This document shows, one piece after another, positions 1 through 20,000 of a stretch of DNA of 20,000 bases; the stretch's first letter is position 1, and every line of letters starts with the position of its first letter. The notes below the pieces were generated by a model, which searched no databases, was not told where the DNA came from, and was given only the letters and a program-made list of their open reading frames with translations. Origin of the DNA: an uncultured virus (IMG/VR IMGVR_UViG_3300033068_001821) (lineage: Duplodnaviria > Heunggongvirae > Uroviricota > Caudoviricetes); IMG/VR virus record IMGVR_UViG_3300033068_001821. One strand, written 5' to 3'. The position numbers were made by a program, and so were the translations under genes.

Positions 1-20
1 AAATACATAAGTCTTTTTGA

Positions 21-209: not shown

Positions 210-302
210 AATTTTTAGTTTTTTTAATTTTTACATGATTATATATCAAAAATAATACACTTTGTTTTTAAAAAAGTGAAATAATTTTTTAATATATAGT
301 TA

Positions 303-704: not shown

Positions 705-713
705 AAAGTAAAT

Positions 714-1442: not shown

Positions 1443-1457
1443 ATTACTCTCTTTTTT
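1432..1457 (+). terminator. Intrinsic terminator
   Basis: Stem GAGAGTA (1435..1441), loop AAT, TACTCTC (1445..1451), then a T6 run, overlapping the stop at 1442. Confidence 0.75.
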
Positions 1458-1506
1458 CTTTTATGAGAATTTTATTTTAATATATACATAAAAACATTAT
1501 TTATAT

Positions 1507-2514: not shown

Positions 2515-2532
2515 TAAAAAATAAATTAAAAA

Positions 2533-4110: not shown

Positions 4111-4120
4111 TATATAGTAT

Positions 4121-4870: not shown

Positions 4871-4872
4871 TT

Positions 4873-5577: not shown

Positions 5578-5603
5578 AAAAAGAGAGTTTTAACTCTCTT
5601 TTT
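5578..5603. terminator. Bidirectional intrinsic terminator
   Basis: AAAAAGAGAGTT-TT-AACTCTCTTTTT inverted repeat between convergent genes. Confidence 0.8.
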
Positions 5604-6330
5604 CATTTAATATTTTATCGATTTGTTGTTCTCTGTGTTCTGCTTTAAGTTCTAGTAAGGCTTCTTGATTTTCTAAATCTATTACATTTATTGTTTTACT
5701 AGGTGAAACTAAAAAATCATAATCAAATTTTACTACTAATCTAGGAGTAAATGTTGCTTCCGAAACTATTGCAGCAGTGAAGTTTTCAATATTCAGTGAA
5801 ACATCATCAAATAAATAAATTTTATAATCATTATATCTCATATAAGGATCTACATAAATATCTTTGTCTGCCAATTTACCAGTTAAATAAACAAATGACC
5901 CATTTGTAGATTTATTCTGTAAACTACTAAAATGAAATCCTGGTGCATCTGATATGAGTGATGTCAATCTAGAATTAGTAACACAATATTTATAATTTTC
6001 ATTTAAAATATAATTCGATAATCTATCAATAGAAACAGAAAATAAACTACCATCTATTATCTCCTTTCTTAAATCAACAAAAGTATTAGTAGTATTATTT
6101 GCAATCTCTCTTAATATATTTTTGTAAATATTTTGAGTTACCTCATTAAAAATAGTACTTAGTACTCTATCATCATCTATCTTAATACCCATAACTTCAT
6201 TTTGAGGTAAAGACATAGAAACAGTAGTTGTTTTAAAGTCTCTTAGATTTTTATCTATTTTAATAAAATCTCTGGCAACAATATACTTAGTAAAGTCTTT
6301 ATTTAACTCTTCAAATAGTTTATCCCACAT
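5590..6330 (-). CDS. Truncated paralogue of the major capsid protein (C-terminal part of the gp23-like fold)
   Basis: Collinear matches to the MCP in this window: IFNEVTQNIYKNI/LVNELSQTISKQI, SNYI/SNYI, YCVTN/YLITN, IYVDPYMRYND (identical), IVSEATFTPR/IISEATFAPR. Confidence 0.85.
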   Translation of the reverse strand: MWDKLFEELNKDFTKYIVARDFIKIDKNLRDFKTTTVSMSLPQNEVMGIKIDDDRVLSTIFNEVTQNIYKNILREIANNTTNTFVDLRKEIIDGSLFSVSIDRLSNYILNENYKYCVTNSRLTSLISDAPGFHFSSLQNKSTNGSFVYLTGKLADKDIYVDPYMRYNDYKIYLFDDVSLNIENFTAAIVSEATFTPRLVVKFDYDFLVSPSKTINVIDLENQEALLELKAEHREQQIDKILNEKES

Positions 6331-7276
6331 TTTTGTCTTGTTTAATATTTAACATTTCACCTGTCTTAGGATCATAATTCATAATCAATAACTCAACACC
6401 TTTCTCTTTTTCAACTCCTTCTGTTTTAATAACTGCGGAAGGTCTATGAAACTCTTTAGAAGTCCAAAGATATTCGTTTCTAGGTAATAATTCCTCTAAT
6501 AAAGGAAAGTAATAGTATGACAATGACCATCTACATTTAGATTGTTTTAATAACTCTAATAAACGTCTATGTGAAGAAACACCAAATGTGTTTTCTGTGT
6601 CACACCCATACCAAAATAATCTTCTACCATCATCATCATTTTTTATGTCATTAAAACGAGCGTAAGGTGGGTCTAAATACATATAAGTATCTTCTGCATC
6701 ATACATTTTAATTACTTCTTCAAAATCCATATTATGGAAATCAGTAATTTTCTGTAATCTTTCAGTATATTTATTTTTTTCTAATTTATTGATTAGGATT
6801 TGTAAGTTTAATTTGTTTGTTTTTTTCTTGAAACCTGTGAAACCACCACCTCTTGGATAAACTGAACTAAAACTAGACGTAATTAGAAATGCATAAATTG
6901 CACCTACTTTAAAATCACCAATTTCAAAGTTCATATCATCTAAGAAATTATTAGTAACATATGTTCTATAGATTGACTTAAAGAAATCCCATTTTTTATC
7001 TACTTCGGTTTCTGTTGTATAAAGTAATCCACCTGGTGATAATAAAGCTTTCAACTCTACTAAGAAATCTTGTGGTTGAGAACAACATTTCATCAAGTTT
7101 GCTTGGTGTCTGTTTCTGTCATTAAATATGACATTTGTAAATTCTAAATTAGAATCTAAATATATTGCAAAAGAACCAGAAAATGGTTCAACATATGTTT
7201 TACAATCTGTTGGAATGTTTGGTGTTATAAAGGATTGAAAGTTTGCTTTGCCCCCAAAATAGCTTATGACGCTCAT
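6320..7276 (-). CDS. DNA adenine methyltransferase (D12/Dam-like)
   Basis: SYFGGK, YVEPFSGS (SAM-binding), FND, YLDPPY (catalytic motif IV) and C-terminal ELLIMNY. Confidence 0.9.
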   Translation of the reverse strand: MSVISYFGGKANFQSFITPNIPTDCKTYVEPFSGSFAIYLDSNLEFTNVIFNDRNRHQANLMKCCSQPQDFLVELKALLSPGGLLYTTETEVDKKWDFFKSIYRTYVTNNFLDDMNFEIGDFKVGAIYAFLITSSFSSVYPRGGGFTGFKKKTNKLNLQILINKLEKNKYTERLQKITDFHNMDFEEVIKMYDAEDTYMYLDPPYARFNDIKNDDDGRRLFWYGCDTENTFGVSSHRRLLELLKQSKCRWSLSYYYFPLLEELLPRNEYLWTSKEFHRPSAVIKTEGVEKEKGVELLIMNYDPKTGEMLNIKQDKNVG

Positions 7277-7285
7277 TTTTATTAA

Positions 7286-8116
7286 TTATTTTTTTCTGTA
7301 TTTTGTTTTACTTTTACTTATAGTTACTGCAATATCAAAAGTTTCTTTTTTCCTCTCCAAATAGACAGTTGCATCTTTATAAAAAAATTCATAGAAACGT
7401 TCTATATCGCTGAATGATCCCCAATCTATTACATAATAGGTCCCTTTAGGACACCTAATTTTATTTCTTGTTATTCCACAATAATCTACTAACTTATCAA
7501 CATATATCTCTATAAAATCTTTACTACCAGAACATATATTTACTTGACCTCTATCACTAGTATCTCTAGAACCCTCTCGTTTTTTATGTATTGATATACA
7601 ACCATCACCATCAAATAATCCTCTCATAAAATGGTGTTCTAAATGTTTAGGTATTTCAGGATATTTAACCACCATAGTTTTATTACCTATTATACCTAAG
7701 TTAAATAAATCATCCTTCATTTTTTTAGAAGAAAGTCCTATGTTTGATATTTTACCATCTTTTCTAGTAAAAATATTTCCTTCAAAGGAAACACACTCTT
7801 TAAATTTATATAATATATCTGTTTCCTTTTGTATAATTTTAATATTATTAGTTTTACTATTTATATTACCGTCCGCAACTATAAAACCTAGGAAATATGC
7901 CTTATCTTCGGTATCTATATTTTCAAAGTAATTCTCATTAAAATTAAACTTTCTAGTTCTTTCATTTAACTCACCACCATTTTCAATAATTACTTTTTGG
8001 TAGTGTCTATCCGAAATACCATATTCACTTATTATGTCTTTTCTTTTTATACCGTTTTGTCTTTTAGACAAAATTTCTAATTCTTGTTCCTTTGTCAATT
8101 CTTTTAATTTTCTCAT
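7286..8116 (-). CDS. Free-standing double-motif LAGLIDADG homing endonuclease
   Basis: AYFLGFIVADG and HFMRGLFDGDG motifs, FNENYF..IDTEDKAY leader, YLERK C-terminus and an HTH-like N-terminus. Confidence 0.88.
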   Translation of the reverse strand: MRKLKELTKEQELEILSKRQNGIKRKDIISEYGISDRHYQKVIIENGGELNERTRKFNFNENYFENIDTEDKAYFLGFIVADGNINSKTNNIKIIQKETDILYKFKECVSFEGNIFTRKDGKISNIGLSSKKMKDDLFNLGIIGNKTMVVKYPEIPKHLEHHFMRGLFDGDGCISIHKKREGSRDTSDRGQVNICSGSKDFIEIYVDKLVDYCGITRNKIRCPKGTYYVIDWGSFSDIERFYEFFYKDATVYLERKKETFDIAVTISKSKTKYRKK

Positions 8117-8176
8117 ATAGTATATATAAAAAAGTCAAAGTTCCCACCAAAGTATTTTGATTATTTTCATATTTAT

Positions 8177-8207
8177 TTTGTTATATAATTTTATTTTATT
8201 ACTTTTG
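8177..8207 (+). promoter_or_regulatory. Bacteroidota primary-sigma promoter (-33 TTTG, -7 TAnnTTTG)
   Basis: TTTG 8177..8180, 19-nt spacer, TACTTTTG 8200..8207, 23 nt before the ATG at 8231. Confidence 0.75.
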
Positions 8208-8230
8208 TAGAGTTAAAAAAACAATAATAT

Positions 8231-9352
8231 ATGACGCTTACGTATAAAGGAATCGAATATAGACCAGGAAGTAGAATAATCGCTAAAATAAATGGAGATC
8301 AACTTGAAGGTAGACTTCAGTTTGAAATACAAGAAGGTACTGAGTATTTTTTCATTTGTCACAACAATCCAGATAGATCAGGTAGATATGCAACATACCG
8401 TTTTGGATATAACTATTCTTGGGCATTTAGACCCAACAATAGTGGTCTTACTGATGGTGTACAAATTATTGGAATTAATACGGCAGAAGACTTAAAACCA
8501 GAGTTTGAGATTTCTGAAAAGTTAGTAATGTTTTTAACTAATCAAAAAATTCAAGCGTTTAATTTAGAATATATCACTGTATTCCCAGAATATGATAAGT
8601 TTGACGTATCTGAAAATAAAGGTATGGTTAAATTGACAAATTCCACAAAAAATAGAGTTGTAGAGTTTAAATTAGGTAGATTCCTAAACACATTTTCAAA
8701 ACAAGTAGCGGAGAAATTTGAATCAAACGATTTTTTATTAGATAATAAAACAATCGAGAAAATTCATAATGATTATTTAGTATACCAAACTGGCGATTAT
8801 ATCAAAGTTGAATACTTAACTGGTAAAGATATTCTAGAAGGTTATAAAAGAGAAAATTATCAAGTATCAAAATCATCTTTGGGTGGTTCTTGTATGACTG
8901 ATCGTTTAGATTACTTAGATATTTATGTAAAAAACCCAGATAAAGTCGAAATGATTTCAATAAAGATGTTTGATAAATTTGTTGGTAGAGCTTTATTGTG
9001 GACAACTGACTGCGGTAAAAAAGTTATAGATAAACAATATATCTGTGACGAATGGGTTTCATCTAAATTTGATGAAATTAGAAAAGAAAATGAGTACGAG
9101 ATCTGGTCAGACTACGGTGATAAGGATAATGTTTTATCAATTAGTGTAAACACTGACGGTATTCAAAGATGGCCTTACTTAGATACATTCCAGTTTTTTG
9201 CATATAATAAAACTACAAAAAAAGTTGGTTTGTTTAAAACAGAAGATATAATAGATGAAACAAAAGGAACATTATCTACTTATCCACCAATAGGTTATTC
9301 TATGAGACTTAGAAGTACCGCAGGAAGATATGAAGATTGTACTTGGAGATAA
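8231..9352 (+). CDS. Conserved phage protein with GSCM...GRALLW...PYLDT motifs, function unknown
   Basis: Motifs KLGRFL, LGGSCM, IYVKNP, GRALLW, DKQY and WPYLDTF, a pattern I recall from uncharacterised phage proteins; has its own promoter and terminator. Confidence 0.7.
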   Translation: MTLTYKGIEYRPGSRIIAKINGDQLEGRLQFEIQEGTEYFFICHNNPDRSGRYATYRFGYNYSWAFRPNNSGLTDGVQIIGINTAEDLKPEFEISEKLVMFLTNQKIQAFNLEYITVFPEYDKFDVSENKGMVKLTNSTKNRVVEFKLGRFLNTFSKQVAEKFESNDFLLDNKTIEKIHNDYLVYQTGDYIKVEYLTGKDILEGYKRENYQVSKSSLGGSCMTDRLDYLDIYVKNPDKVEMISIKMFDKFVGRALLWTTDCGKKVIDKQYICDEWVSSKFDEIRKENEYEIWSDYGDKDNVLSISVNTDGIQRWPYLDTFQFFAYNKTTKKVGLFKTEDIIDETKGTLSTYPPIGYSMRLRSTAGRYEDCTWR

Positions 9353-9354
9353 TA

Positions 9355-9382
9355 AAAAAGCTTAGAGAAATCTAAGCTTTTT
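9355..9382. terminator. Bidirectional intrinsic terminator
   Basis: AAAAAGCTTAGA-GAAA-TCTAAGCTTTTT perfect hairpin between convergent genes. Confidence 0.85.
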
Positions 9383-9385
9383 CTT

Positions 9386-9883
9386 TTAAAATAAAATTGA
9401 TTCTAATCCTTTTCGTTGAGTACCATTTAATTCACTTCTAATTTGCATTAGAAGTTTACCCAATTTATTTTTACCTTTGTTAGCACACTTTTCACAAGTA
9501 CATTGACCCCAAAAAATATCGTGCCACCAGTTACCTTCAATAATTTCAACATCACCAGTAGCTAATAACATTTCTTTTAAGTTTTCGTCTTTAAACTTCT
9601 CACGAAGTGCCCACTCCATAAAACCTAATCGTTTTTCTTCCCAATCAGAACGTACTCTTATTACTTTTCCTAATTGTTTAGCTTTACCTGCAGTACTAAT
9701 TTTAGAAACTAATTCTCTAAAATCTGCAGCAGTGTAATATTTACCATCAATCATTTGATCATTATTACATTTCATTGCAACGTAATAGTGTTCAACTGAA
9801 GGGTAAGTTATACCTTGGTATTCTATTTTACAAGGGTAGAAGTTTGAAAGAAAACCATATCTACCATCAAATCTTGTTATCAT
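9386..9883 (-). CDS. NADAR (YbiA/DUF1768) family N-glycosidase/ADP-ribosylhydrolase
   Basis: FLSNFY, YPSVEHYY.A.K, AKQLG, R.DW, KF...L...LL.TG...IIE.N..D.FWG, NKLGKLLM.IR. The start is more likely the ATG at 9883 (MITRF, 165 aa), because the track's start at 9922 lies inside the tmRNA terminator. Confidence 0.92.
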   Translation of the reverse strand: MITRFDGRYGFLSNFYPCKIEYQGITYPSVEHYYVAMKCNNDQMIDGKYYTAADFRELVSKISTAGKAKQLGKVIRVRSDWEEKRLGFMEWALREKFKDENLKEMLLATGDVEIIEGNWWHDIFWGQCTCEKCANKGKNKLGKLLMQIRSELNGTQRKGLESILF

Positions 9884-9900
9884 AATTTCTATATTTTTTA

Positions 9901-9908
9901 CAAAGATA
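9901..9908 (-). promoter_or_regulatory. Bacteroidota-type -7 element (TATCTTTG) for NADAR
   Basis: Minus strand TATCTTTG followed by TA, 17 nt before the ATG at 9883; no clear -33 element. Confidence 0.55.
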
Positions 9909-9910
9909 AT

Positions 9911-9938
9911 AAAAAAACCCACTCATTGAGTGGGTTTT
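9911..9938 (-). terminator. Intrinsic terminator of the tmRNA
   Basis: Minus strand AAAACCCACTC-AAT-GAGTGGGTTTTTTT directly after the tmRNA 3' end. Confidence 0.85.
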
Positions 9939-9942
9939 GTTG

Positions 9943-10318
9943 TGGAAGTGACGTTGTACTGCCCAACGTGTCTTTCTCAGTTAAAAATAACTATTCGTTT
10001 ACAAGTTTAGTAAGTTTTTCTAAGCTCACAAAATAATTAGTTTTTGAATCTCAAACTACTAATAAAAAAGTTTCACTTTTAAACTGGTGACCACAGCTGT
10101 AGAATTTTTGGTGTATTAGTCTTATTTTATTAAGCTACTACTAAATCTCTGTTAGAGATTAAATTGTTTTGTAAGCAAGCTACTAAATCTTCGCTTGTTC
10201 CTACTTGATTAACGTTGCCGTTTAAAAATGTACCATCTAATTTATTAATCGGTTATTGTAGGCCACCCGATACTTGCATAATCATCCTTAGTCCGCAAAT
10301 CAATTCTGAAACACCCCC
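9943..10318 (-). ncRNA. ssrA: tmRNA (one-piece, about 376 nt)
   Basis: 5' GGGGGTG pairs with 3' CACTTCC + discriminator A, including G3:U70. D-loop-like TTTCAGAATTGA. T-arm ACGTTG-GGCAGTA-CAACGT after GAC. Long-range helices TGCAAGT/ACTTGTA and GGATGATTAT/ATAGTTATTT. Tag frame 10219..10130 after TAAAC: GNVNQVGTSEDLVACLQNNLISNRDLVVA then TAA TAA. Flanked by an ATATATA box and a terminator. Confidence 0.9.
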
Positions 10319-10379
10319 AAGTTATTATTGTTTATATATTATAAATAAAAAGCCAAAAAGTTTAGTTTTTTATAAAAAA

Positions 10380-11687
10380 TTATTCTAAAACATTATCAGT
10401 AAACCATTTAATAACTAATTCTTTTGGTATTACATCACCATAGTACTCTTTATATTGTTCACCACCCTTTTTAACGACATATGACGTATCATCTGTGTTG
10501 ATACTATCAAAGTATTTAACATAATCATCAAAGCTCTTAAAACGCATTCCTAATACACTTACAGAACCATCATTAAATATCATCATTTTGTACTCTTCTG
10601 GGTTAATATCAATTCCAAAAATATTACCTAAATAAACATTTAATTTCTTAACATCTTTAAAACTAAATCTCACATCTTCTTGACCTTCAATTTTAACTAA
10701 AATATCATCTAAAATAGTTACTTTAATGTCTTTGTCTTCAAACCAAGTATTAAATACTAAAGTATCAGTATTAAAAGTATCATACTCTAATGTATTAGTA
10801 TGTAATAAGTCGTATTTATTTAAAATAGATTTAACTTCTCTAACAACTGATTTATTTAAGAAACGGTGTCTTGGTGCAATTTTGAATTTTGGTTCAAAGT
10901 AAGTTACTTGTCTTTCAGTTGGTAAATTTTCCCAATCAATTTTACAAGCAGCTTCTGCAACTTTAATAGTATATGATATATCAACATACTCGGTTTTGTA
11001 GTGTTCATTCCAACCACCAGCACTAATATTAGTACACTCTGGAATAATATCTAAAAACGTCGCAGTATCAGTATAATAAGCATTTGGATCGGCTTTAGAA
11101 GCAATACCTAAATTTGTTAGTTCTTCTGCCAAAGTGTCTGCAAATTTATATGAGCAACAAAATCTTGCTTTTTGTCTTAAAACAACAGAACCTGTTTGTT
11201 TTCTATCAAAAGCAACTGCTCTTTTAAATTTCTTGAAGAATTCTGGGTTTGCATTTAAAGAATTTCTTGAACCCCATAGACCACCACTTAAAATTGGTTC
11301 CTCACCTAAGAAAAAGTAGTAAGTACCTGGTATACCTTTAGCAATCATGTATAATAAAATAGACATTCCTAATTTATTATCACCACCTAAAATAGTAGTA
11401 CCATCAGTTTTAATAATATCACCTTCAATAACGTGATTGACTTTCTGATATTCTTTACAATAAGTATCTAAGTGAGTTGTAAATAATGTTTCTGAATTAC
11501 CTACTTCAATATAATAATTACCAGTAGAATCTTTTTTATATCCTTTAGGTAAATATCCCTCTAATGTTTTTTCATGACCATAAGGAATTGTATATTCAGT
11601 TAATTTCAAAAAAGTATCCTTTATTTCTAAAGGATTTATACTTTTTTCTTCCTTTCTAGAGAAGATAGATCTTTTGTTTTTTGCCAT
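10380..11687 (-). CDS. M28/M20-like zinc peptidase, copy A, with C-terminal extension
   Basis: HLDT, GGDNKLG, GEE, AFDR, CCS, YTDTA, IPECTNISAG..NEH metal-ligand pattern. Confidence 0.85.
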   Translation of the reverse strand: MAKNKRSIFSRKEEKSINPLEIKDTFLKLTEYTIPYGHEKTLEGYLPKGYKKDSTGNYYIEVGNSETLFTTHLDTYCKEYQKVNHVIEGDIIKTDGTTILGGDNKLGMSILLYMIAKGIPGTYYFFLGEEPILSGGLWGSRNSLNANPEFFKKFKRAVAFDRKQTGSVVLRQKARFCCSYKFADTLAEELTNLGIASKADPNAYYTDTATFLDIIPECTNISAGGWNEHYKTEYVDISYTIKVAEAACKIDWENLPTERQVTYFEPKFKIAPRHRFLNKSVVREVKSILNKYDLLHTNTLEYDTFNTDTLVFNTWFEDKDIKVTILDDILVKIEGQEDVRFSFKDVKKLNVYLGNIFGIDINPEEYKMMIFNDGSVSVLGMRFKSFDDYVKYFDSINTDDTSYVVKKGGEQYKEYYGDVIPKELVIKWFTDNVLE

Positions 11688-11704
11688 AATTATTTAATTT
11701 TTTA

Positions 11705-11712
11705 CAAATATA
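11705..11712 (-). promoter_or_regulatory. Bacteroidota-type -7 element (TATATTTG) for peptidase copy A
   Basis: Minus strand TATATTTG followed by TA, 17 nt before the ATG at 11687, the same spacing as for NADAR. Confidence 0.55.
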
Positions 11713-11730
11713 CAAAATTATTTTTAAATA

Positions 11731-12336
11731 TTAAAATGGTGCATCATCATCTTCACCATAATCTTCATCTGTATCATCATTTAATCCTTCATCATAATAA
11801 AAACTAAACTCCATTACTTGTCCTCTTTGAGATTCCCAAGTATCATAATCAGAATCATATTGTGGTAAAATATCTGTTTTTAATTTATTCACTAAATCAA
11901 ATAAACTAATTAAATCACTTAATCTTTCTCTATGAGATAAATTACATCTAATAGTTAAATCTAAACTATCATTAGTAATAGAAACATTATGGAAACCTTT
12001 ATTTTTAAACATACTTCTTAATAAGTATTTTAAATGTTCCATGTCATCATCTTCAATGTCTTCATCAGTTAAATCAGGATCTCTTTCTTCTTTTGAATAT
12101 AACCAATCAACATCTCTATTATCATAATCATTAAAATTATGACCAATTCCACCATAATACTCATCATCATAGTGATCATCATCTGAAATCTCTCCTGACA
12201 TATCAAATCGTGAAGGTAGTGGTGTACTAGTTTTTCTTCTTTCACCACCTGCCCAATCTTCATTCCAATCTTGGTCAGTACCTTCCCAAGCTTCATCGTC
12301 AACTCTTTCTACAAATTTTTTATATTTCTGTATCAT
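11731..12336 (-). CDS. Highly acidic hypothetical protein
   Basis: Asp-rich, probably disordered N- and C-termini around a small folded core; starts 1 nt after the peptidase B stop; N-terminus MIQKYKKFVE. Confidence 0.75.
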   Translation of the reverse strand: MIQKYKKFVERVDDEAWEGTDQDWNEDWAGGERRKTSTPLPSRFDMSGEISDDDHYDDEYYGGIGHNFNDYDNRDVDWLYSKEERDPDLTDEDIEDDDMEHLKYLLRSMFKNKGFHNVSITNDSLDLTIRCNLSHRERLSDLISLFDLVNKLKTDILPQYDSDYDTWESQRGQVMEFSFYYDEGLNDDTDEDYGEDDDAPF

Positions 12337-12337
12337 A

Positions 12338-13720
12338 TTATTTTAGTTCTATTTTAATAAATGCGTCATCAAACATAACGTATGGGTCTGGATTTTTATG
12401 TTTATACATCAATCCTTGTACTTGTGAAAGAGTATCATAGATCGTTTTAGTATCTGCCATATCAGTATCTATTTTAATGAAGATTCTATCTTGATGACCA
12501 ACTGTTTTAACTTCTAATCCAAATGCATATTTCTTAATATCATTGATTAAAGGTTTATGTTTTCTTAATATTTCTTCATTTAAACCTACTTTTCTAACTG
12601 TTGGTAATTCTGACCATTTAACTTTTAAAGAAGCTTCTGCCAATTTAATTAAGTAAGTCATATTTTGTATTTCTCTACCAGTATGTTCATTGTTATATCC
12701 AACAGATACGTTAGTACATTCTGGAATATCATCCATAAATGATGCAGAGTCCGTAAATACTCCTGTAGGATCAATAGATAGGTTTAAACCACTCTTATTA
12801 TACTCTTTACATAAAGCACCACCAAATTCGTTTGAACAACAAACTCTACCATATTGTGATGTAATAACTGAACCAGTTTTTCTTCTATCAAAAGAAACAC
12901 ATCTTTTTATATTTTTAAGGTAGTCAAATGAATCAAATTCACTTGCTAAATCTCTTGAACCAATACCACCTCTTTCTTCTCCAATGAAAAAGTAATATAA
13001 TCCAGGAATATTATGTGCCATCATATATAACATAACAGCAACTCCTGACTTATCATCTGCACCCAATATACTCATACCATCAGTATAAATATATTCGTCA
13101 CCATCCTCCATTTTAGAAAATAGAACAGTATCTACTTGTTTTCTATCAGCAGTATCTAAGTGAGAGCTAAACATTGTAGTGTCATCACCTGTAATAATTT
13201 TATAATAATTACCAAATTTATCTATTTCTAGGTCTGGTAAAAACTGTAATACTTCTGTTTCGTGACCCATTGGGTAAGTTTTTGTAACTAAGGATAAGAA
13301 AGTTGAACGTACATCCTTAGGGTTGTATTTAAAAGGTTGGTGTTCTAATCTTGTTCCTACTGGAGCAACAGTTACTTTTACTCCTTTTTTCAACTGAACA
13401 ATAGTAGTAGAGAATTTTCTAATACTTTCTTCGTCATAAACACCTGGAAAATAACTTCTTAAAAAAGAACCTATTTTTAAGTATTGTCTTTTACCACCAA
13501 TAACTGCATCAAAAAAGTAATCTGAGTCAGATATATCTAATTTTGATATATTCATATCATTGGCATATTTAGATCTAGGATCTGCCATCCAATTAAGTTC
13601 ATATGCGATATAATCATCATAATCATCTTCCATCTTAGTTAAAAGTGATTTTAACCTAGCAGAAAATGTAATCTTTATTTCATCATCATATCTCATTCTA
13701 TAATCATTTGTACCGGCCAT
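12338..13720 (-). CDS. M28/M20-like zinc peptidase, copy B, with N-terminal extension
   Basis: HLDT, GADDKSG, GEERGGIGS, SFDR, CCS, FTDSA, IPECTNVSVGY.NEH. Confidence 0.88.
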   Translation of the reverse strand: MAGTNDYRMRYDDEIKITFSARLKSLLTKMEDDYDDYIAYELNWMADPRSKYANDMNISKLDISDSDYFFDAVIGGKRQYLKIGSFLRSYFPGVYDEESIRKFSTTIVQLKKGVKVTVAPVGTRLEHQPFKYNPKDVRSTFLSLVTKTYPMGHETEVLQFLPDLEIDKFGNYYKIITGDDTTMFSSHLDTADRKQVDTVLFSKMEDGDEYIYTDGMSILGADDKSGVAVMLYMMAHNIPGLYYFFIGEERGGIGSRDLASEFDSFDYLKNIKRCVSFDRRKTGSVITSQYGRVCCSNEFGGALCKEYNKSGLNLSIDPTGVFTDSASFMDDIPECTNVSVGYNNEHTGREIQNMTYLIKLAEASLKVKWSELPTVRKVGLNEEILRKHKPLINDIKKYAFGLEVKTVGHQDRIFIKIDTDMADTKTIYDTLSQVQGLMYKHKNPDPYVMFDDAFIKIELK

Positions 13721-13753
13721 TTAAAATGTTTTTATTTTTATTATATATTAAAA

Positions 13754-14146
13754 TTAAATAGTGACTTCATGTGCATTTTTATAGTCAACCATTACTTGAC
13801 CATCATTCATACCTGGTCTTTTACTAACAAAGCGACGTTTACAGTAAACTACAACAGCATTATCTGTACCTTTTGCTTTACTATTATCTTTTGCAATCTC
13901 TGCAACCTTTCTAATTACTTCAGGAGTTGGTATATTATCTCTAACAATAATCACAACATGACTTCCAGGAACACCCTTTACGTGCATCCATATATCGTCA
14001 TTATCAGCGACATTAAATGTTAAATGATCATTAGATTTAGCATCCTTACCTAAGTGTACTAAAAATCCATCAATTTCCATCTTTTTAATATTAGGAAATT
14101 TATCTTTTTTGGACTCATTAAACTGTGAATATTTCTTTAATTTCAT
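13754..14146 (-). CDS. Stand-alone NFACT-R (DUF814) RNA-binding domain protein, RqcH/FbpA-related
   Basis: LGKDAKSND.LT...A...DIWMH....PGSHVVI ... A...SKA ... VVY.....VSK..G...GQV.V, the NFACT-R pattern. The likely start is the ATG at 14146 (130 aa), because the track's start at 14185 lies inside the MCP terminator. Confidence 0.9.
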   Translation of the reverse strand: MKLKKYSQFNESKKDKFPNIKKMEIDGFLVHLGKDAKSNDHLTFNVADNDDIWMHVKGVPGSHVVIIVRDNIPTPEVIRKVAEIAKDNSKAKGTDNAVVVYCKRRFVSKRPGMNDGQVMVDYKNAHEVTI

Positions 14147-14172
14147 AATGTATATATTATTTATATAAAACA

Positions 14173-14198
14173 AAAAAAGACCCAATTGGGTCTTTTTT
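14173..14198 (-). terminator. Intrinsic terminator after the major capsid gene
   Basis: AAAAAAGACCC-AATT-GGGTCTTTTTT perfect inverted repeat 16 nt after the MCP stop. Confidence 0.85.
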
Positions 14199-14214
14199 AT
14201 ATTTAATCTAAAGA

Positions 14215-15936
14215 TTAGTTTAATAATCCTTTAACATCAGACACAACAATAGTCATGAACTGTTTTTGTGGATACCAACCAACTTCAGTTACTGCATATC
14301 TTGATCTAAGTAACATTCTTGGTGCGAATGTAGCCTCAGAGATGATGCTAATTGACTGAGCCATTAAGTAAGGTACGAAAATGATACCTGGTTGGTCAGG
14401 GTTATTTTTTCTACCTAATACGATTCTATTATCGTTATATCTCATATATGGATCAACATAGATAGAGATGTCTCCGATTGAACCTACTGGGTATAATTGA
14501 CCTTGAGAGTTCATTTTAGATTTTAATGGGTTGATAGTATAACCTGCAATATCTTGTAATGCTGCAGCTAAACCTCCATTTGTGATTAAGTATTGAGCTG
14601 GTCCAACACGTCCTTCTGTTGCAATGTAGTTAGAAGCATGAGCAATTTTAGTGATCAATTTTCTTTGTACAGCGTGAGTAGTCTCACCACCAACAGCACT
14701 TCCTGCATACTGTGTATCCAAGTCAAAGATTGTTTGGTTAGCGATTTGTGTAGAGTAAGTAGAACCTGCTACTGGAGCAGTTTGTCTATTTAAAGCACCC
14801 ATTTCAAAAATTTTGTTAACAATTTGTTTAGAGATTGTTTGAGATAACTCATTAACAAGGATTGATTCCATTTTTTGAACGATATCCATACCTGTGTTAG
14901 CTTTAATATCTTCAATCTCTGTTCTTCTTAATGCAGAAGATACTTCAATAGTACCAACAGCAACTGTTTTAGAAGAAATTTTTGGTCCGATAACACCTGA
15001 GTAAGTATCATCATCAGTTGCTCTATCCATTGGATAAGCACCTGCTGGAGACGAAGTTGGTCCGTACCAGTTTGCAGAGAAACCTGGGATGTGGTCTTCT
15101 AATGCAGATACTAATTGGATATCAACACCACCTGTCGCAACACCTGCAATACTTGAGATTTGAGATGTCATCGATGCAGTTGCAGTAAATGTATTTCTAG
15201 TAGGATCATAACTCCATCCAATATTCATTTGTCCAACACCTGTATTTGCAGTGTTTGCTTGTCTGTAAGCTCTAAACATTGGGAAACCATCGATACGAGA
15301 GAATCCTAAGAATTCAACAACACCTAATTTACTAGATGGTTCAGTAGTAGAAATCGTAGCACCAATAGATGCAGTACCACTAGGATTGATTGAATACCAG
15401 TATCTACCGTTTGAAATACCACCTTGATTTTGGTTGATTGAAGAACCAACACCTGTTAAAATCGCAGTAGCTAAAGCAGATGCAGTTGCACCAGCGTTTA
15501 CTTTGAAGATTTGTGGTCTTTCGTCAGATGCACCCATTCTTGTATCATCGTATTGGAAATCGATGTATAATAAGTCGATTTTTGGACCTGGAGTTGGTTT
15601 AACAGCAACTAAGTCTAAACCGATTGTTTGAGCAGCAATTTTCATTGCAACTGGTAACAAGTTTTGACCAACATCACCTGAACCAATTGTTCCTACTGAT
15701 GTAGATGTAGCTAAAGAACCACCAATTGTTTGTCCTGCATAAGTAGCAGGTTGTGCAGCAAATACGTTACCCATACCAGCTACGTTTGAAGCGTTTACAT
15801 ACGCATTTTCGTTGATTGAGTGAAATTCAGCATATTCTGACATCCATTCTACTCTATCACCTGTTACTCCCATGTTTTCCAACACTGGAGACCATTTTTT
15901 CATGGCTTTTTGATTATCTATTCTAATGTGTGACAT
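14215..15936 (-). CDS. Major capsid protein (T4 gp23-like)
   Basis: KKWSPVLE N-terminus, DLVAVKP..GP, IE DIKA..G.D, IL.NE...I...I, IYVDPY, G..FVPY, TFAPR....SRY; lies directly downstream of the prohead protease; C-ending codons are visibly enriched, as expected for high expression. Confidence 0.93.
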   Translation of the reverse strand: MSHIRIDNQKAMKKWSPVLENMGVTGDRVEWMSEYAEFHSINENAYVNASNVAGMGNVFAAQPATYAGQTIGGSLATSTSVGTIGSGDVGQNLLPVAMKIAAQTIGLDLVAVKPTPGPKIDLLYIDFQYDDTRMGASDERPQIFKVNAGATASALATAILTGVGSSINQNQGGISNGRYWYSINPSGTASIGATISTTEPSSKLGVVEFLGFSRIDGFPMFRAYRQANTANTGVGQMNIGWSYDPTRNTFTATASMTSQISSIAGVATGGVDIQLVSALEDHIPGFSANWYGPTSSPAGAYPMDRATDDDTYSGVIGPKISSKTVAVGTIEVSSALRRTEIEDIKANTGMDIVQKMESILVNELSQTISKQIVNKIFEMGALNRQTAPVAGSTYSTQIANQTIFDLDTQYAGSAVGGETTHAVQRKLITKIAHASNYIATEGRVGPAQYLITNGGLAAALQDIAGYTINPLKSKMNSQGQLYPVGSIGDISIYVDPYMRYNDNRIVLGRKNNPDQPGIIFVPYLMAQSISIISEATFAPRMLLRSRYAVTEVGWYPQKQFMTIVVSDVKGLLN

Positions 15937-16024
15937 AAAAATTTTATTTTTTTTTAATTTTTTTTTACAATACTATATATATCCTTGTTTTTACTCGTTT
16001 TCGCAAGTATGGATTTTTTATAGA

Positions 16025-18250
16025 TTATAAGCTTTTGAATCTTTCCATTATTGCATTCATTTCATTTGCAGACAATTTGTCTTCTTGAATCAATGCTTCG
16101 TGAGATACTAATTTCTTAGTTACAGACTCATTCTTTTTAAGATTTCTAGTTGCCCAGAAATGCTCTATTTGATTTTCAGTTTTTAATACGTCTTCTGGAT
16201 ATAATCTAGCTTGTGATAAAACTGATTTCTTCACAGATTCGTTTAACTGACCCCAGATTGGCTTCATGTTTTCAGGCATTAATCTGATTACTCTTTCTTC
16301 AAGAGATTCGTTTTTTGTTGATAATGATTCAGCAATCAATGTAAGAACTTCTTTTTGTGTAAAATAACTACTTTCGTTTATGTGTAGTTTCACGCTTTCT
16401 TGTTCTTCGTCTGATAATGCATAAAAGCTATCAACTTGTGATTTGTTTAAGAACTTCAAGAAGTTCAAATCACTGCTTTCAGAAACTTTACGTTTTTTAG
16501 CTTCTTCAATTAATTTATTTATTGATTCAGAAAGTTCTGAGTCTTCTTCACCTTTAAATTCTGGTGTTTCTTCTCCTTCTTCTCCTTCTTCACCTTCAAA
16601 ATCTTCTTCTTGTGCTTGACCACCGAATTCTTCTTCGTCATTTTCTTCACCTTCGTGTCCTTCATGACCAGCAAATTCTGCAGCATCACGTGCAAACTCT
16701 TCTGCTTCTTTAGCAAATTTTTCTGCTTCCTCAGCAAAGTCTCCGTGTCCTTCGTTTCCAGCGAATTCTTCACCTTCTTCTTGACCACCTTCTAATTCTT
16801 CTTCGTTTTCTTCAAAACCAGCGTCTTTTAAAGTTGGGAATTGAGCTTCTTCTCCTTCTTCAGCAGATTCGTTTAATCTAAAGTTACCGTTTAATCTTTC
16901 AACAATCATTCCTTGATAAGAAATAGATTTGTCTAATGATTCAGCAACATATTCAGAGTAAGCAATGTTATCATCTAAGTGCTCAGCAATGTATTCAGAG
17001 TAAGCAATGTTACCTTCTACGTGCTCAGCTAAATATTCAGAGTAAGCAATTGAGTTATCAACATTCTCAGCAATATATTCTGCATAAGCAATATTTTTGT
17101 CTAAGTTTTCAGCAATATATTCAGAGTAAGCAATGTTTTTGTCTAAGTTCTCTGCTAAGTATTCTGAATACTCAATGTTTTTGTCTAAGTTTTCAGCTAA
17201 ATATTCTGAGTAAGAGATGTTCTTGTCTAAGTTTTCAGCAATATATTCTGAATAATTAATGTTCTTGTCTAAGTTTTCAGCTAAATATTCTGAATACTCA
17301 ATGTTTTTATCTAAGTTTTCAGCTAAATACTCAGAGTAGTTAATTGCTTTTTCTAAGTTTTCAGCTAAATAATCATTGTGTTTAGCTAATTTAGTAGTAG
17401 TGTCTTTTAATGATTTATTTTCATTAACCACCACTTGGATTTTGTCAGCTAAATAATCTAAATATTTAGCAACTTGTGTGTTAGTATTATTTAATTCCTC
17501 ATAATACTCTAATAGTTGTTCTAATTTCTTAGCAGGCATATTACCTTTAGAAATAGCATTCTTTACTTCATTTTTTGTTGAAGCAATTTCTTTAACCAAA
17601 TACTGTGAATAATCACTTAGTTGTTTCTTGGTTACAAATTCATCTTTGTTCATACCGAATAATTCATTTATTTTTGACTCGTCGGATAATTCATATATCC
17701 TAAAGTTATTTTTTTCGATTTGTCCTTCTGGGCAAAAACCTAATGACTCATTCAAAACTCTTACACTCATTTTCGCTGAAGCAAATCCTGGATCTGCAAC
17801 AATGTCATAAGTAAAAAGTTTTTTCAATGATACTGAACCATCTGATTCTGTTATACCAGCAGCTCTTGATGATACAAAAACTGGACATCCATCGTCAACT
17901 AATGCTTTCGCTTCTTTACCCCAGTAAGTACTTAGTAATTTTATTTCTCCAGCAACAATGTTCTTTTCAGCAACAAACTCTGCTTTTGTAATAATGTGTG
18001 ATGCTCTTGATAACGAAGTATCAAAGACATCCGGGTGATCGAATTCACCATAGACAGCACCTAAGCTGTTCATTCTTTCGTTCATTTCTTGTAATGCTGG
18101 TAAAAATTTCTCAGCTTGATATATTCTCTCATTACGATTCTTTACACCAAACTCAGTAAAAGTACCACCCAATACATAGTCTTTCTGATTAGAAGAATTT
18201 TCTTTAATCAATGAACTTGTTGAATTTTCTACTATTAAAACCGGTTTCAT
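16025..18250 (-). CDS. Prohead core protease (T4 gp21-like) fused to a coiled-coil/acidic scaffold-like region
   Basis: G.F....KNRNERIY, GEFDHP, SHII, G.....LVD.G....VSSRAAG and YDIVADPGF..A in the first ~160 aa, then 14-aa repeats and a Glu-rich tract. Confidence 0.9.
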   Translation of the reverse strand: MKPVLIVENSTSSLIKENSSNQKDYVLGGTFTEFGVKNRNERIYQAEKFLPALQEMNERMNSLGAVYGEFDHPDVFDTSLSRASHIITKAEFVAEKNIVAGEIKLLSTYWGKEAKALVDDGCPVFVSSRAAGITESDGSVSLKKLFTYDIVADPGFASAKMSVRVLNESLGFCPEGQIEKNNFRIYELSDESKINELFGMNKDEFVTKKQLSDYSQYLVKEIASTKNEVKNAISKGNMPAKKLEQLLEYYEELNNTNTQVAKYLDYLADKIQVVVNENKSLKDTTTKLAKHNDYLAENLEKAINYSEYLAENLDKNIEYSEYLAENLDKNINYSEYIAENLDKNISYSEYLAENLDKNIEYSEYLAENLDKNIAYSEYIAENLDKNIAYAEYIAENVDNSIAYSEYLAEHVEGNIAYSEYIAEHLDDNIAYSEYVAESLDKSISYQGMIVERLNGNFRLNESAEEGEEAQFPTLKDAGFEENEEELEGGQEEGEEFAGNEGHGDFAEEAEKFAKEAEEFARDAAEFAGHEGHEGEENDEEEFGGQAQEEDFEGEEGEEGEETPEFKGEEDSELSESINKLIEEAKKRKVSESSDLNFLKFLNKSQVDSFYALSDEEQESVKLHINESSYFTQKEVLTLIAESLSTKNESLEERVIRLMPENMKPIWGQLNESVKKSVLSQARLYPEDVLKTENQIEHFWATRNLKKNESVTKKLVSHEALIQEDKLSANEMNAIMERFKSL
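16922..17383 (-). repeat. Coding tandem repeat, 11 x 42 bp (xYSEYLAENLDKNI)
   Basis: Counted from KHNDYLAENLEKAI to AYSEYVAESLDKSI: 462 bp = 11 units, near-identical in the middle and degenerate at the ends. Confidence 0.95.
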
Positions 18251-18381
18251 TTAAAATAATTATTTTTTGTAGTTATTACGTTGGTATATATTTAACCTTG
18301 AAATCGATAAAATTTTAAAGGTGGATTTTTTATGGTGGAAAAATTTGTTCATTTTTTTGCAGATATATCAAATGGATTTTT

Positions 18382-18389
18382 TATCTTTG
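18382..18389 (+). promoter_or_regulatory. Bacteroidota-type -7 element (TATCTTTG) for the Zn-ribbon/RNase R unit
   Basis: TATCTTTG followed by TA; a TTTG at 18356..18359 gives a slightly long 22-nt spacer. Confidence 0.5.
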
Positions 18390-18437
18390 TAAAAATCTTG
18401 GAGGAAAAAGAGTATATTTAATAAATACTTAAAAAAA

Positions 18438-18845
18438 ATGCGGTTTTTTATGATCCTATCAAGAGAAATAAATGTGAAAATAACTGAATCTAATTACAAC
18501 TATTATGATGATTTAGGATATGATGTATATATAAGTGAAGAAATTGTAATTCCGGTTGAGTTACTACCAAAGGGTTCACACTACAAAATAAAGTGTAAAT
18601 GTGATTCTTGTGGGATTGAAAAAGAAGTAATTTATAAGAACTATTTAAAATATGATAATAATTGGGGTGACTATTATTGTAGAAAATGTTCAGAAGTAAA
18701 AAGAAAAGAAACATTAAGAAAAAATTTCGGAGTAGATTATCCGATACAGAATGAAAAGGTTTTGCAGAAAATGAAAAAAACACTGGTGGAGAAGTATGGA
18801 GTAGACAACATTTCTAAAAACAAAAAAAAATTAAATAATGAATAA
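18438..18845 (+). CDS. Zn-ribbon protein with K(Y/F)GV repeats, probably nucleic-acid binding
   Basis: CKCDSC...CRKC and two T...K(N/-)(F/Y)GVD repeats of the kind found on phage endonuclease-associated proteins; no nuclease domain; alternative ATG at 18450. Confidence 0.65.
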   Translation: MRFFMILSREINVKITESNYNYYDDLGYDVYISEEIVIPVELLPKGSHYKIKCKCDSCGIEKEVIYKNYLKYDNNWGDYYCRKCSEVKRKETLRKNFGVDYPIQNEKVLQKMKKTLVEKYGVDNISKNKKKLNNE

Positions 18846-20000
18846 AATTAAAGAAGATAGCATCTACGAAGGTTCTATCGAATTCGCAAACAGCGGAAAT
18901 GCCTCAATAAATATTTTAGATAAGAATATCTTTATATTTAAAAGAAATACTCTCAACTCACTTAATGGTGATAAAGTAAGAGTTAAAATAATAAGTAAAA
19001 ATAATAAGCTAGAAGCTGAAGTTCTTGAAGTTCTTGAAAGATTTAGAAATCAATTCGTTGGTAAAGTACAAGTAAACAAAGAAAATAAAAAATTGATATT
19101 TGTTGTACCAGACAATCAAAAAATTGCAGTTGACTTTTATATAAAAGGAGAACACGATGCACTACACGATCAAAAAGTTCTTGTCGAACTAATCGACTGG
19201 GAACCTGGGACAAAATCACCAAAAGCAAAAATAGTAGAAATACTTGGTAGTTCAGGTGAAAATAATGCAGAAATGAACTCAATTATGTATGAGTACGGTT
19301 TACCAAACAACTTTCCTTTAATGGTAGAAGCCGAAGCGGAATTAATAGACTTCACAATTCCCGAATCAGAAATCAATAACAGACGAGATTTAAGAAATAT
19401 CACAACCTTTACAATTGACCCAGTGGACGCCAAAGATTTTGACGATGCACTTTCAGTCAATATAATAGATGATAATACAGTTGAAGTAGGTATTCATATC
19501 GCAGACGTTTCACACTATATTAAAGAAGGTGGTATAATAGATGAAGAAGCAGTAAAAAGAGCAACATCTGTTTACTTAGTTGATAGATGTGTTCCAATGT
19601 TACCAGAAAGATTGAGTAATGGAGTTTGTTCATTAAGACCTAATGAAGATAAACTTTGTTTCTCAGTTATTGTTAAATTAAATAACAATGGTGATATTTT
19701 AGATAAATGGTTTGGAAAAACTGTTATACACTCTGATAGACGTTATTCTTATGAAGAAGCACAAGAAATAATAGAAGGTAAAGATGGTGATTTCAAAGCC
19801 GAAATACTTTTGTTAGATTCAATTGCTAAAAAAATGAGAAAACAAAGAATAAATGATGGTTCTATTGAAATGGGTGGAATTGAAGTAAGATTCAAATTAG
19901 ACCCAACTACAAAAAAACCAACAGGTGTTTATTTTAAAACTCAAAAAGATGCAAATAAACTTATTGAAGAATATATGTTACTTGCAAATAGATTAGTTGC
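18838..20000 (+). CDS. rnr: Ribonuclease R (RNB family), truncated by the window end and absent from the ORF track
   Basis: Open frame from the ATG at 18838 (MNKIKEDSIYEG...). Cold-shock-like domains (LNGDKVRV), then RRDLR...FTIDPVDAKDFDDALS, GIHIADVSHY, RATSVYLVDRCVPMLPERLSNGVCSLRP and ANKLIEEYMLLAN. Confidence 0.95.
   Translation, partial: MNKIKEDSIYEGSIEFANSGNASINILDKNIFIFKRNTLNSLNGDKVRVKIISKNNKLEAEVLEVLERFRNQFVGKVQVNKENKKLIFVVPDNQKIAVDFYIKGEHDALHDQKVLVELIDWEPGTKSPKAKIVEILGSSGENNAEMNSIMYEYGLPNNFPLMVEAEAELIDFTIPESEINNRRDLRNITTFTIDPVDAKDFDDALSVNIIDDNTVEVGIHIADVSHYIKEGGIIDEEAVKRATSVYLVDRCVPMLPERLSNGVCSLRPNEDKLCFSVIVKLNNNGDILDKWFGKTVIHSDRRYSYEEAQEIIEGKDGDFKAEILLLDSIAKKMRKQRINDGSIEMGGIEVRFKLDPTTKKPTGVYFKTQKDANKLIEEYMLLANRLV

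Follow-up and report, generated by a model that had tools for sequence, protein, structure and literature searches.

A divergent, expressed transfer-messenger RNA and a stand-alone NFACT-R protein in the head-gene region of a Mahaphage-type huge phage

Do the genes of ribosome rescue that lie among the head genes of an uncultured huge phage make up one rescue kit? The question is raised by a 20,000-nt stretch of IMG/VR record IMGVR_UViG_3300033068_001821 (the window, meaning this whole stretch), in which a gene for transfer-messenger RNA (tmRNA; ssrA), a gene for a stand-alone NFACT-R domain, and a gene for RNase R are interleaved with capsid genes. A first-pass annotation had located these three and two peptidase genes, and all the elements were found where it placed them. 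It also proposed that they form parts of both rescue arms, trans-translation and Ala-tailing. Here, the trans-translation arm is supported, the phage Ala-tailing arm is not supported, and the parts are no proven single kit. With a probability of roughly 0.65, two things are to be kept apart: a genuine, expressed ssrA gene within a phage trans-translation system, and a stand-alone NFACT-R protein that does not constitute a second, Ala-tailing arm. Their clustering would then reflect the gene order of the head module in this clade and not an operon.

The window, with its genes mapped over 9386–20000, represents the head-morphogenesis module of a huge phage of Mahaphage type. Megablast matches of the region were limited to four genomes of uncultured huge phages, 635–735 kb long (LR745206, LR756502, LR756501, and LR756503). 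These belong to the Mahaphage group in the available text of Al-Shayeb et al. 2020 (PMC7162821), which predicts Bacteroidetes hosts for Mahaphage genomes >634 kb. Twenty loci were compared, namely 18 IMG/VR contigs retrieved via the NFACT-R protein and two GenBank regions. Companion genes were sought in five records of relatives: the complete genomes LR756502 and LR745206, and three partial contigs of the closest clade with CheckV completeness of 30–74%.

The tmRNA gene lies in a 457-nt gap between the NADAR gene and the gene of metallopeptidase-like protein A, where there is no convincing open reading frame (ORF). Its parts are as follows.

9943–10318, minus strand: ssrA (tmRNA) gene, 376 nt, based on orthologs, covariation, and RNA contigs
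10312–10318, minus strand: 5' strand of the acceptor stem, GGGGGUG, pairing with 9944–9950
10127–10219, minus strand: tag frame, with resume codon GGC at 10217–10219, 29 codons to 10133, and the stops TAATAA at 10127–10132
9951–9969, minus strand: T arm, with a 6-bp stem ACGUUG/CAACGU and the loop GGCAGUA at 9957–9963, based on sequence and covariation
9944–9950, minus strand: 3' strand of the acceptor stem, CACUUCC, followed by discriminator A at 9943, read from the sequence and the alignment
9911–9938, minus strand: intrinsic terminator directly 3' of the tmRNA, with an 11-pair stem and a T run

Read by eye on the minus strand, the acceptor stem has 7 bp with G:U as the third pair and is followed by the discriminator A, at position 9943, the base at which the tmRNA had first been made to start. 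The acceptor is thus tRNA-Ala-like, with G3:U70 and A73, and an A follows the stem in all aligned sequences. The T-arm hairpin ACGUUG-GGCAGUA-CAACGU abuts the acceptor stem. Its stem is present and covarying; the loop in the window is not of the canonical UUCRANY type. The 3' CCA is not encoded in the window, where the template reads A-CAA, and is encoded in the ortholog of L015. The encoded tag peptide is GNVNQVGTSEDLVACLQNNLISNRDLVVA, of 29 codons and then TAATAA; the internal frame has a resume codon, an in-frame stop, and a conserved peptide. A terminator scan found two terminator-like sites against 0.2 expected, one of them directly after the tmRNA 3' end.

Standard tools do not call this gene. 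ARAGORN reports 0 genes in the window at default, and none with thresholds relaxed down to -ps70. At -ps60 it gives two overlapping calls in which the tRNA-like domain is misplaced; only the tag frame was retained from this output. Rfam gives 0 calls in the window at the gathering score. A permissive Rfam search of 9300–10800 (E<=10) returned 21 rows, none of them tmRNA and all far under their gathering scores, reflecting terminator hairpins. The window copy therefore falls outside tmRNA as defined by the curated thresholds (Rfam gathering score and ARAGORN default). The tmRNA is nevertheless genuine. It is not a chance resemblance, because covariation, conserved synteny, and RNA contigs all point to it.

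Against each of the two complete relatives, the 396-nt tmRNA region is 72% identical across 97% of its length. An ortholog with 69–97% identity is at the same site in 16 of the 20 loci, that is, in all 16 that cover the site; L001, L010, L013, and L018 stop before it. RNAalifold on a 14-sequence alignment (A1) recovers the acceptor stem, the long helix 2, the pseudoknot 1 (PK1) hairpin, hairpins in the tag frame, and the T stem. The paired cells amount to 94.8%, against 84.4% in shuffles and 37–46% with slid partners, and pairs changed on both sides number 23, against 14.4 and 3–8, respectively; this structure came out of the very alignment on which it was scored and so has an advantage over the slid versions. 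Of 500 shuffles, none equals the observed value by any of the measures. The pair G3:U was seen in 14/14 aligned sequences. The acceptor stem is 96.9% paired, and its fifth pair covaries among A:U, G:C, and G:U. Compensatory changes are seen at four of the five T-stem pairs counted.

The tag is conserved as a peptide across A1 through synonymous changes such as ACA/ACC, GAT/GAC, and TTA/CTA. Three short helices lie inside the tag-coding part (10133–10219, A1 columns 124–184), and 8 of their 15 pairs are changed on both sides. The tag-coding bases are under double constraint, as the helices covary and the peptide is kept.

The orthologs of L016 and L017 link this RNA to the standard tmRNAs. Both are called by ARAGORN (2 of 13 loci) and by Rfam RF00023 (2 of 6 loci), scoring 57.3 and 50.4 bits where 47 are required. 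Their homologous tag is ATSNEVGTAEDLVSALRNN…. Their T-loops are UUCGAAU and UUCGAGU, while that of L015 is UUCAUCA, and the other 11 of the 14 aligned sequences have GGCRGUN-like loops. ARAGORN called none of the 11 loci with the GGCRGUN-type loop, and Rfam on the five large records of the clade gave no tmRNA call over the gathering score. The GGCRGUN-type copies are also without the GG of the D-loop analogue seen in L016 and L017 (AG-AA vs AGGCA). Based on these sequences, the two sides of the elbow appear to have changed together, and the tmRNA elbow would have been remodelled as a whole.

Expression was approached through metatranscriptomes. Six runs contain about 40% of the sampled words of 9900–10400. 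Four of them, from four studies, were compared to 9000–11200 at 88% likeness, and each gave one whole contig of 361–368 nt (depth 17–39, 99% alike). These contigs span 9942–9948 to 10307–10309 and match the 3' end of the tmRNA. They differ from the window at 3–4 positions, which are variants of L002-type relatives. In the same four metatranscriptomes, the NADAR and peptidase flanks are uncovered, bar two short pieces of other contigs; the pieces, at 9423–9457 and 11017–11048, carry loose ends and were not taken as evidence of flank transcription. Because the contigs lie within the predicted gene and the flanks are empty, there is fair support that the tmRNA is a discrete, abundant RNA.

Trans-translation also needs partners. 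No smpB is in the window, as had been stated before. SmpB is encoded in two of the five records, both of them complete relatives (E 7e-53 and 8e-50; 169.8 against 119.1 bits for TIGR00086), 128–136 kb from the tmRNA. No standard tmRNA scores over the Rfam gathering score in LR756502 and LR745206, where sub-threshold matches cover 17–92 nt only. This leaves the divergent RNA as the sole candidate for an SmpB partner in these two genomes. RNase R is in 5/5 records; its distance from the tmRNA is 9 kb in LR745206 and 160 kb in LR756502. ClpP is also in 5/5, in one to three copies, scoring 260 bits with ClpP models and 77 with the model of the ClpP-related head protease. A weaker ClpP-like ORF of LR756502 (364599–365000, plus strand; 94 bits) is located about 2.6 kb upstream of SmpB (367597–368013).

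Other companions were sought in the same records. ClpX is over the cut-off in none of the five; the similarity seen is weak and of AAA+ type, and includes an AAA+ protein of about 650–700 aa. Pth and NFACT-N were each found in 0/5. Two of the five encode a stand-alone 138-aa protein with the GGQ/RF-1 domain and without a codon-recognition domain (LR745206 48043–48459, minus strand, corresponding to L042:1423–1839; LR756502 107309–107629, minus strand). The protein of LR745206 reaches 36.8 bits to ArfB against a cut-off of 100, and its best match is domain 3 of RF1 (93 bits). It is ArfB/PrfH-sized and under every equivalog cut-off. Among the companions that the first-pass annotation suggested to look for, SmpB and ClpP are thus present in relatives, while Pth, ClpX, and an ArfB over its cut-off are not seen. 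Likewise, of its two rescue arms, trans-translation gains SmpB, RNase R, ClpP, and the RNA contigs, and the arm of ribosome-associated quality control lacks NFACT-N and Pth.

The linkage proposed among ssrA, NFACT-R, and rnr holds in part. The tmRNA and NFACT-R genes are 2–4 kb apart in every relative covering both, whereas RNase R is adjacent in 11 of the 20 loci and 160 kb off in LR756502. A wider sample consisted of 13 large viral records encoding SmpB, in which this tmRNA type was sought by BLAST with the RNA of the window. Five of the 13 (G005, G007, G008, LR756502, and LR745206) have both the tmRNA type and NFACT-R, in each case 2–3 kb apart; the other eight have neither. RNase R is in six of the 13. 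A standard tmRNA is found by Rfam in four of the other eight records, and none of these four has NFACT-R. One record outside the clade, G012 (the contig of L148), is an unrelated phage with direct terminal repeats; its RNase R gene (343795–344793) is about 2.5 kb from SmpB, its standard tmRNA is at 80950–81364, and it has neither NFACT-R nor the tmRNA type of the window. The five records with co-occurrence are one clade, and therefore the perfect co-occurrence may be due to shared ancestry. NFACT-R is a clade trait and not a general companion of phage trans-translation, because it is found in only five of the 13 SmpB-encoding large records, all of this clade.

From these parts, a course of events can be suggested. 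The tmRNA, the phage SmpB encoded far away (in relatives), RNase R, and the phage ClpP would be the phage's own trans-translation system. The CCA would be added after transcription, and the tmRNA would be alanylated through G3:U70 and A73. The charged tmRNA may then enter stalled ribosomes with SmpB and tag the nascent chain, while RNase R would clear the non-stop mRNA and Clp-type proteases would remove the tagged chain. NFACT-R retains the RqcH-type fold and the DWH motif and lacks every other part of RqcH; it would not form a second rescue arm.

Several points weigh against this reading. A scan for sigma-70-like promoters gave three sites against 3.4 expected, none of them before the tmRNA. 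The RNA contigs end 9–11 nt short of the predicted 5' end, and as they are assemblies from RNA libraries, exact ends and the CCA are unreadable in them; the coincidence of the contig ends was rated a weak hint only. The T-loop is off consensus, and aminoacylation, SmpB binding, and tagging are functions predicted from sequence. SmpB, ClpP, and the GGQ protein are known from relatives and not from the window's own genome, and the three partial contigs of the closest clade yielded no SmpB. The perfect co-occurrence of NFACT-R and the tmRNA, 2–4 kb apart, would also fit a functional tie. As for NFACT-R itself, the solo NFACT-R protein CCDC25 binds dsDNA, judging from PDB titles, so binding to RNA or the ribosome is not assured.

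The RNA could be a tmRNA-like molecule that does not work in rescue, such as a decayed copy, an attachment-site remnant, or a decoy or sensor of SmpB. Its non-canonical T-loop, the lost GG of the D-loop analogue, and its scores under the ARAGORN and Rfam thresholds are what such a molecule might show. A decaying or idle copy is hard to reconcile with a full-length gene with both ends, compensatory changes that keep every helix, a tag peptide kept via synonymous changes, and an invariant G3:U and A73; the RNA is also abundant and discrete, and relatives keep the phage SmpB in the same genomes. This is a very improbable explanation. The attachment-site fragment in particular was discarded in view of a full-length gene that phages conserve. 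The single integrated toolkit with both arms, and with peptidases clearing the products, is unlikely as well. All the named genes are real, a span of about 10 kb takes in the tmRNA, NFACT-R, and RNase R both in the window and in 11 of the 20 loci, as well as in four of the five large records of the clade, and SmpB, the GGQ protein, and ClpP are in relatives. The missing parts could come from an RqcH of the host. Yet both NFACT-N and Pth are absent from the five records, RNase R can be 160 kb off and SmpB about 130 kb off, NFACT-R is absent from eight of the 13 SmpB-encoding records, and nothing ties the peptidases to tagged products. The reading that keeps the expressed ssrA apart from NFACT-R is preferred here.

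Compared with the bacterial one-piece tmRNA (RF00023) and its SmpB, the phage RNA shares the 7-bp acceptor stem with G3:U, the discriminator A, the T arm, the long helix 2, the PK1 hairpin, a tag frame with a double stop and a hydrophobic C-terminus (…LVVA), and the terminator, with SmpB in relatives. It differs in the T-loop (GGCAGUA in the window vs the UUCGAAU type), the missing D-loop GG, the CCA that is not encoded, and the resume codon, which is GGC in most copies and not GCN. The tag of 29 residues, the covarying helices inside the coding part, and scores under the Rfam and ARAGORN thresholds also set it apart. The presence of tmRNA and SmpB in huge phages is already published (Al-Shayeb et al. 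2020, PMC7162821, in the available text), and the available text on Mar_Mega_1 gives one tmRNA (PMC9723777). These reports concern the same phage group and the same idea of phage-borne trans-translation. According to the same texts, tmRNAs were assigned there with ARAGORN, which calls none of the 11 GGCRGUN-type loci here. What is new here is the DWH and fold evidence for NFACT-R, the co-change of the elbow, and the leader family described below.

Standard detectors thus miss a whole tmRNA lineage. As ARAGORN misses the tmRNAs of this clade, ARAGORN-based surveys undercount tmRNAs, and an apparently 'orphan' SmpB may have a partner after all. With its altered T-loop and its lost D-loop GG, this RNA is a natural experiment on what a tmRNA elbow requires for working with SmpB, EF-Tu, and alanyl-tRNA synthetase.

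The features around the NFACT-R gene are the following.

13754–14146, minus strand: stand-alone NFACT-R gene, 130 aa from the ATG at 14146 (PF05670)
14114–14146, minus strand: leader MKLKKYSQFNE, 11 residues, a candidate propeptide with putative cleavage after Glu11
14215–15936, minus strand: gp23-type major capsid protein (MCP; PF07068 3.9e-30; phrog_138)
16025–18250, minus strand: prohead protease, 741 aa, with a long C-terminal extension (phrog_207 2.6e-29)

The NFACT-R ORF is 13754–14185 (minus strand) with the probable start ATG at 14146. It matches PF05670 (E 8.5e-14, 52.5 against 29.8 bits) and lies 68 nt downstream of the MCP gene, which bears out the earlier description of a lone NFACT-R gene directly after the MCP. 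In all 20 loci, it is on the same strand as the MCP gene and 37–3096 nt downstream. In L017 alone, a 680-aa ORF (7025–9067, plus strand) is inserted between the two genes. The protein aligns to residues 443–553 of Bacillus subtilis RqcH (E 2e-16). Its AlphaFold2 model has a mean predicted local distance difference test (pLDDT) of 88.1 and a predicted TM-score (pTM) of 0.80. With Foldseek, the NFACT-R domain of RqcH is the best match (query TM-score (TMq) 0.77, root-mean-square deviation 1.4 Å, 40% identity), followed by FBPS, CCDC25, Rqc2, and NEMF. Both profile and fold thus assign the protein to NFACT-R. The family is large, with 601 matches, mostly 129–130 aa, several of them on contigs of 250–380 kb. 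DxWxH is found in 120/120 of the best family members, and D51, W53, and H55 (DWH) are invariant in 19/19 sequences of alignment A2.

In RqcH, NFACT-N, with the helix-hairpin-helix (HhH) and the coiled coil, recruits tRNA-Ala. The phage protein has only 130 aa, and the parts that define RqcH/NEMF (NFACT-N, HhH, and coiled-coil/M) were not found in the protein, nor was NFACT-N in any of the five records. Pth, too, is in 0/5. The solo NFACT-R therefore cannot Ala-tail by itself. According to the available text of bioRxiv 10.1101/2020.09.03.281279, the NFACT-R domain of RqcH contacts the A-site finger, and the DWH motif, which is located beside this finger, is required for association with the 50S. 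As the RqcH-type fold and DWH are kept, the most likely activity of the phage protein, judged from sequence and model, would be binding of the large subunit or of a tRNA-like RNA. It resembles NFACT-R of RqcH/NEMF and the solo proteins CCDC25/Jlp2 in fold, in DxxxH/DWH, and in a conserved downstream Ser, and it is stand-alone like CCDC25. It is unlike RqcH/NEMF in being without NFACT-N, HhH, and coiled coil, and unlike CCDC25 in being without the C-terminal coiled coil; its phage origin, its position after the MCP, and its leader also set it apart. In the available text of Burroughs and Aravind 2014 (PMC4075521), solo NFACT-R forms are listed only in eukaryotes, and the word 'phage' occurs 0 times. 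Among the papers searched, the single one that names both NFACT-R and phage does not deal with a phage protein. A solo bacterial-type NFACT-R with an intact 50S-binding motif is a compact tool for studying this domain alone.

NFACT-R opens with MKLKKYSQFNE, directly followed by SKKDKFPNI…. Residues 1–16 are disordered in the model (pLDDT <50), and the Glu of the leader is invariant in 19/19 sequences of A2. In all 117 family members having this block, a Glu is no more than eight residues upstream of the NFACT-R domain; the junctions are FNE in 79, FFE in seven, LNE in five, YNE in four, and others. The NFACT-R domain of L016 and L017 is the C-terminal part of a longer protein (453 or 425 aa), whose true N-terminus carries the motif (MKYIKPFKIFKE and MKYLKSYKKYNE). 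These long forms have a segment resembling the N-arm of the MCP after the motif (BLASTP E 1e-4, in a single comparison) and a second phi-x-E junction just before the NFACT-R domain. Two other proteins also have the leader and then such an MCP-N-arm-like segment (…AGMGAV…AQP…): LR745206 93266 (plus strand, 84 aa) and G002 119725 (minus strand, 153 aa).

The pattern [KR]x[YF]xx[FY]xE, starting within the first 12 residues, was counted among ORFs of at least 80 aa in LR745206. It is found in 13 of 840, against 0.66 expected from the internal rate or 1.19 from shuffling the first 40 residues (maximum five in 200 shuffles). In the close relative G002, it is in 5 of 202 ORFs, against 0.16 and 0.23. 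Among the 21 ORFs of the window, NFACT-R is the one carrier, and the metallopeptidase-like proteins A and B have no leader motif. Unrelated proteins thus have in common a short N-terminal leader ending in phi-x-Glu. Ten of the 13 carriers in LR745206 are without a significant family match. One is a DUF7275 protein with the motif at position 11, which may not belong here, and the other two are NFACT-R and a protein of tRNA nucleotidyltransferase type (PF01743, 9.8e-30). The latter (LR745206 516201–517370, plus strand, corresponding to L074:3201–4370) is a 390-aa member of the tRNA nucleotidyltransferase/poly(A) polymerase family with the leader MILKKYKMFLE…. The gene just upstream (515857, 114 aa) also has the leader. 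A leader-bearing enzyme of CCA-adding type deserves notice, given that the CCA of the tmRNA is not encoded.

In T4, internal proteins enter the prohead via a 10-residue N-terminal capsid-targeting sequence (CTS) in which residues 4 and 7 are important, and proteases of this type cut after Glu in the motifs ITE, LTE, and LIE (available text of PMC9026906 and PMC5694885). By analogy, the leader is a candidate capsid-targeting propeptide of T4 type, which would explain the slot of NFACT-R behind the MCP. The likeness to T4 internal proteins and Alt includes a short N-terminal peptide with aromatics three apart and a terminal Glu, its occurrence on otherwise unrelated proteins, and a phage whose MCP is of gp23 type and whose protease is of gp21 type. 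In sequence, the leader is unlike that of T4, and the putative cargo would consist of proteins related to translation or RNA (NFACT-R and a nucleotidyltransferase) and not of anti-restriction proteins. Should the leader turn out to direct proteins into the capsid, the proteins that uncultured megaphages inject could be listed from sequence.

NFACT-R may accordingly be read as a packaged internal head protein, with a CTS-type leader that the prohead protease would remove by cutting after Glu; the mature domain would travel in the capsid, reach the cell together with the DNA, and act there on ribosomes or RNA as infection begins. The slot behind the MCP on the same strand in 20/20 loci, the disordered leader with its invariant Glu, the excess of the pattern in LR745206 and G002, the long forms of L016 and L017, and the T4 precedent (PMC9026906 and PMC5694885, as available) all speak for it. 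Packaging and cleavage are predicted from sequence and analogy. The other head-module proteins of the window do not have the motif, it is internal in 20 of the 117 family members, and the leader may instead be a translation-initiation region, another targeting signal, or a degron. On balance, this is a fair possibility, although the odds are somewhat against it; it is compatible with the NFACT-R part of the preferred explanation. A bolder extension, and a rather doubtful one, is that the leader of this clade (about 11 residues, K-x-[YF]-x-x-[FY]-x-E) loads proteins including NFACT-R and the CCA-adding-type nucleotidyltransferase into the head, such that translation and RNA-repair factors would be injected first and an orthogonal tmRNA–SmpB pair expressed later. 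The remodelled T/D-loop elbow would then set the phage tmRNA–SmpB pair apart from that of the host. The position in the head module would also suit a CCDC25-like DNA-binding protein, for example a basic internal protein on packaged DNA with no role in translation, and Foldseek does match CCDC25, including its dsDNA complexes, with TMq 0.72–0.73. NFACT-R is closer to RqcH (37–40% identity) than to CCDC25 (23–26%), however, and it keeps the DWH motif for 50S contact, which makes a pure DNA-binding role improbable.

The remaining genes of the module are as follows.

9386–9922, minus strand: NADAR-domain protein (PF08719 8.5e-26)
10380–11687, minus strand: metallopeptidase-like protein A (phrog_4191 4.7e-52)
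11731–12336, minus strand: 201-aa protein with homologs in 16 of the 20 loci
12338–13720, minus strand: metallopeptidase-like protein B, with an M20/PepT-like motif region (phrog_4191 9e-62)
18438–18845, plus strand: HNH/DUF7487 homing-endonuclease-like gene (PF24308 3.6e-7; phrog_12131 2.8e-8)
18838–20000, plus strand: RNase R, truncated by the end of the window after the N-terminal 387 aa (RNB 6.1e-72; CSD2 1.6e-27)

RNase R and the prohead protease are arranged divergently, as noted in the first reading, with the small HNH/DUF7487 gene between the two. The ortholog in L002 is full length (627 aa), 94.6% identical, and scores 633.8 bits against 597.85 for the TIGR02063 equivalog, with the architecture CSD2-RNB-S1; it is thus RNase R by both score and architecture. 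It shares the CSD-RNB-S1 architecture and the equivalog-level score with bacterial RNase R, and differs in being short: its match begins only at model position 64 and extends no further than S1, the N-terminal region being missing. The long basic tail of the E. coli-type RNase R (an 813-position model) is missing as well, and the score to that model is 321 against 982 bits. The prohead protease reaches only 17.9 bits to Pfam S77, which is under the cut-off. The HNH/DUF7487 gene overlaps the start of RNase R by 8 nt. It adjoins the protease gene in 18 of 19 covering loci, including those where RNase R is not adjacent (L010–L014, L016, and L019); in L017, it is about 1.6 kb from the protease.

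Metallopeptidase-like proteins A and B are paralogous, and A cross-matches the B regions of relatives with 40–44% identity. B has weak similarity to tripeptidase (PDB 3rza, 8.5e-8) and a PepT-like match (1.9e-9) that is far under the cut-off. The 201-aa protein between them has no Pfam, PHROG, or NCBIfam match. The rest of the window (1–9385) contains about 12 ORFs on both strands, two of which served as synteny markers. The NADAR protein also matches the NCBIfam model 'NADAR family anti-phage protein', under its cut-off. Its gene adjoins the tmRNA in 13 loci (L002–L005, L007–L009, L011, L014–L016, L019, and L020), and in L011 the NADAR–tmRNA pair is inverted as a unit.

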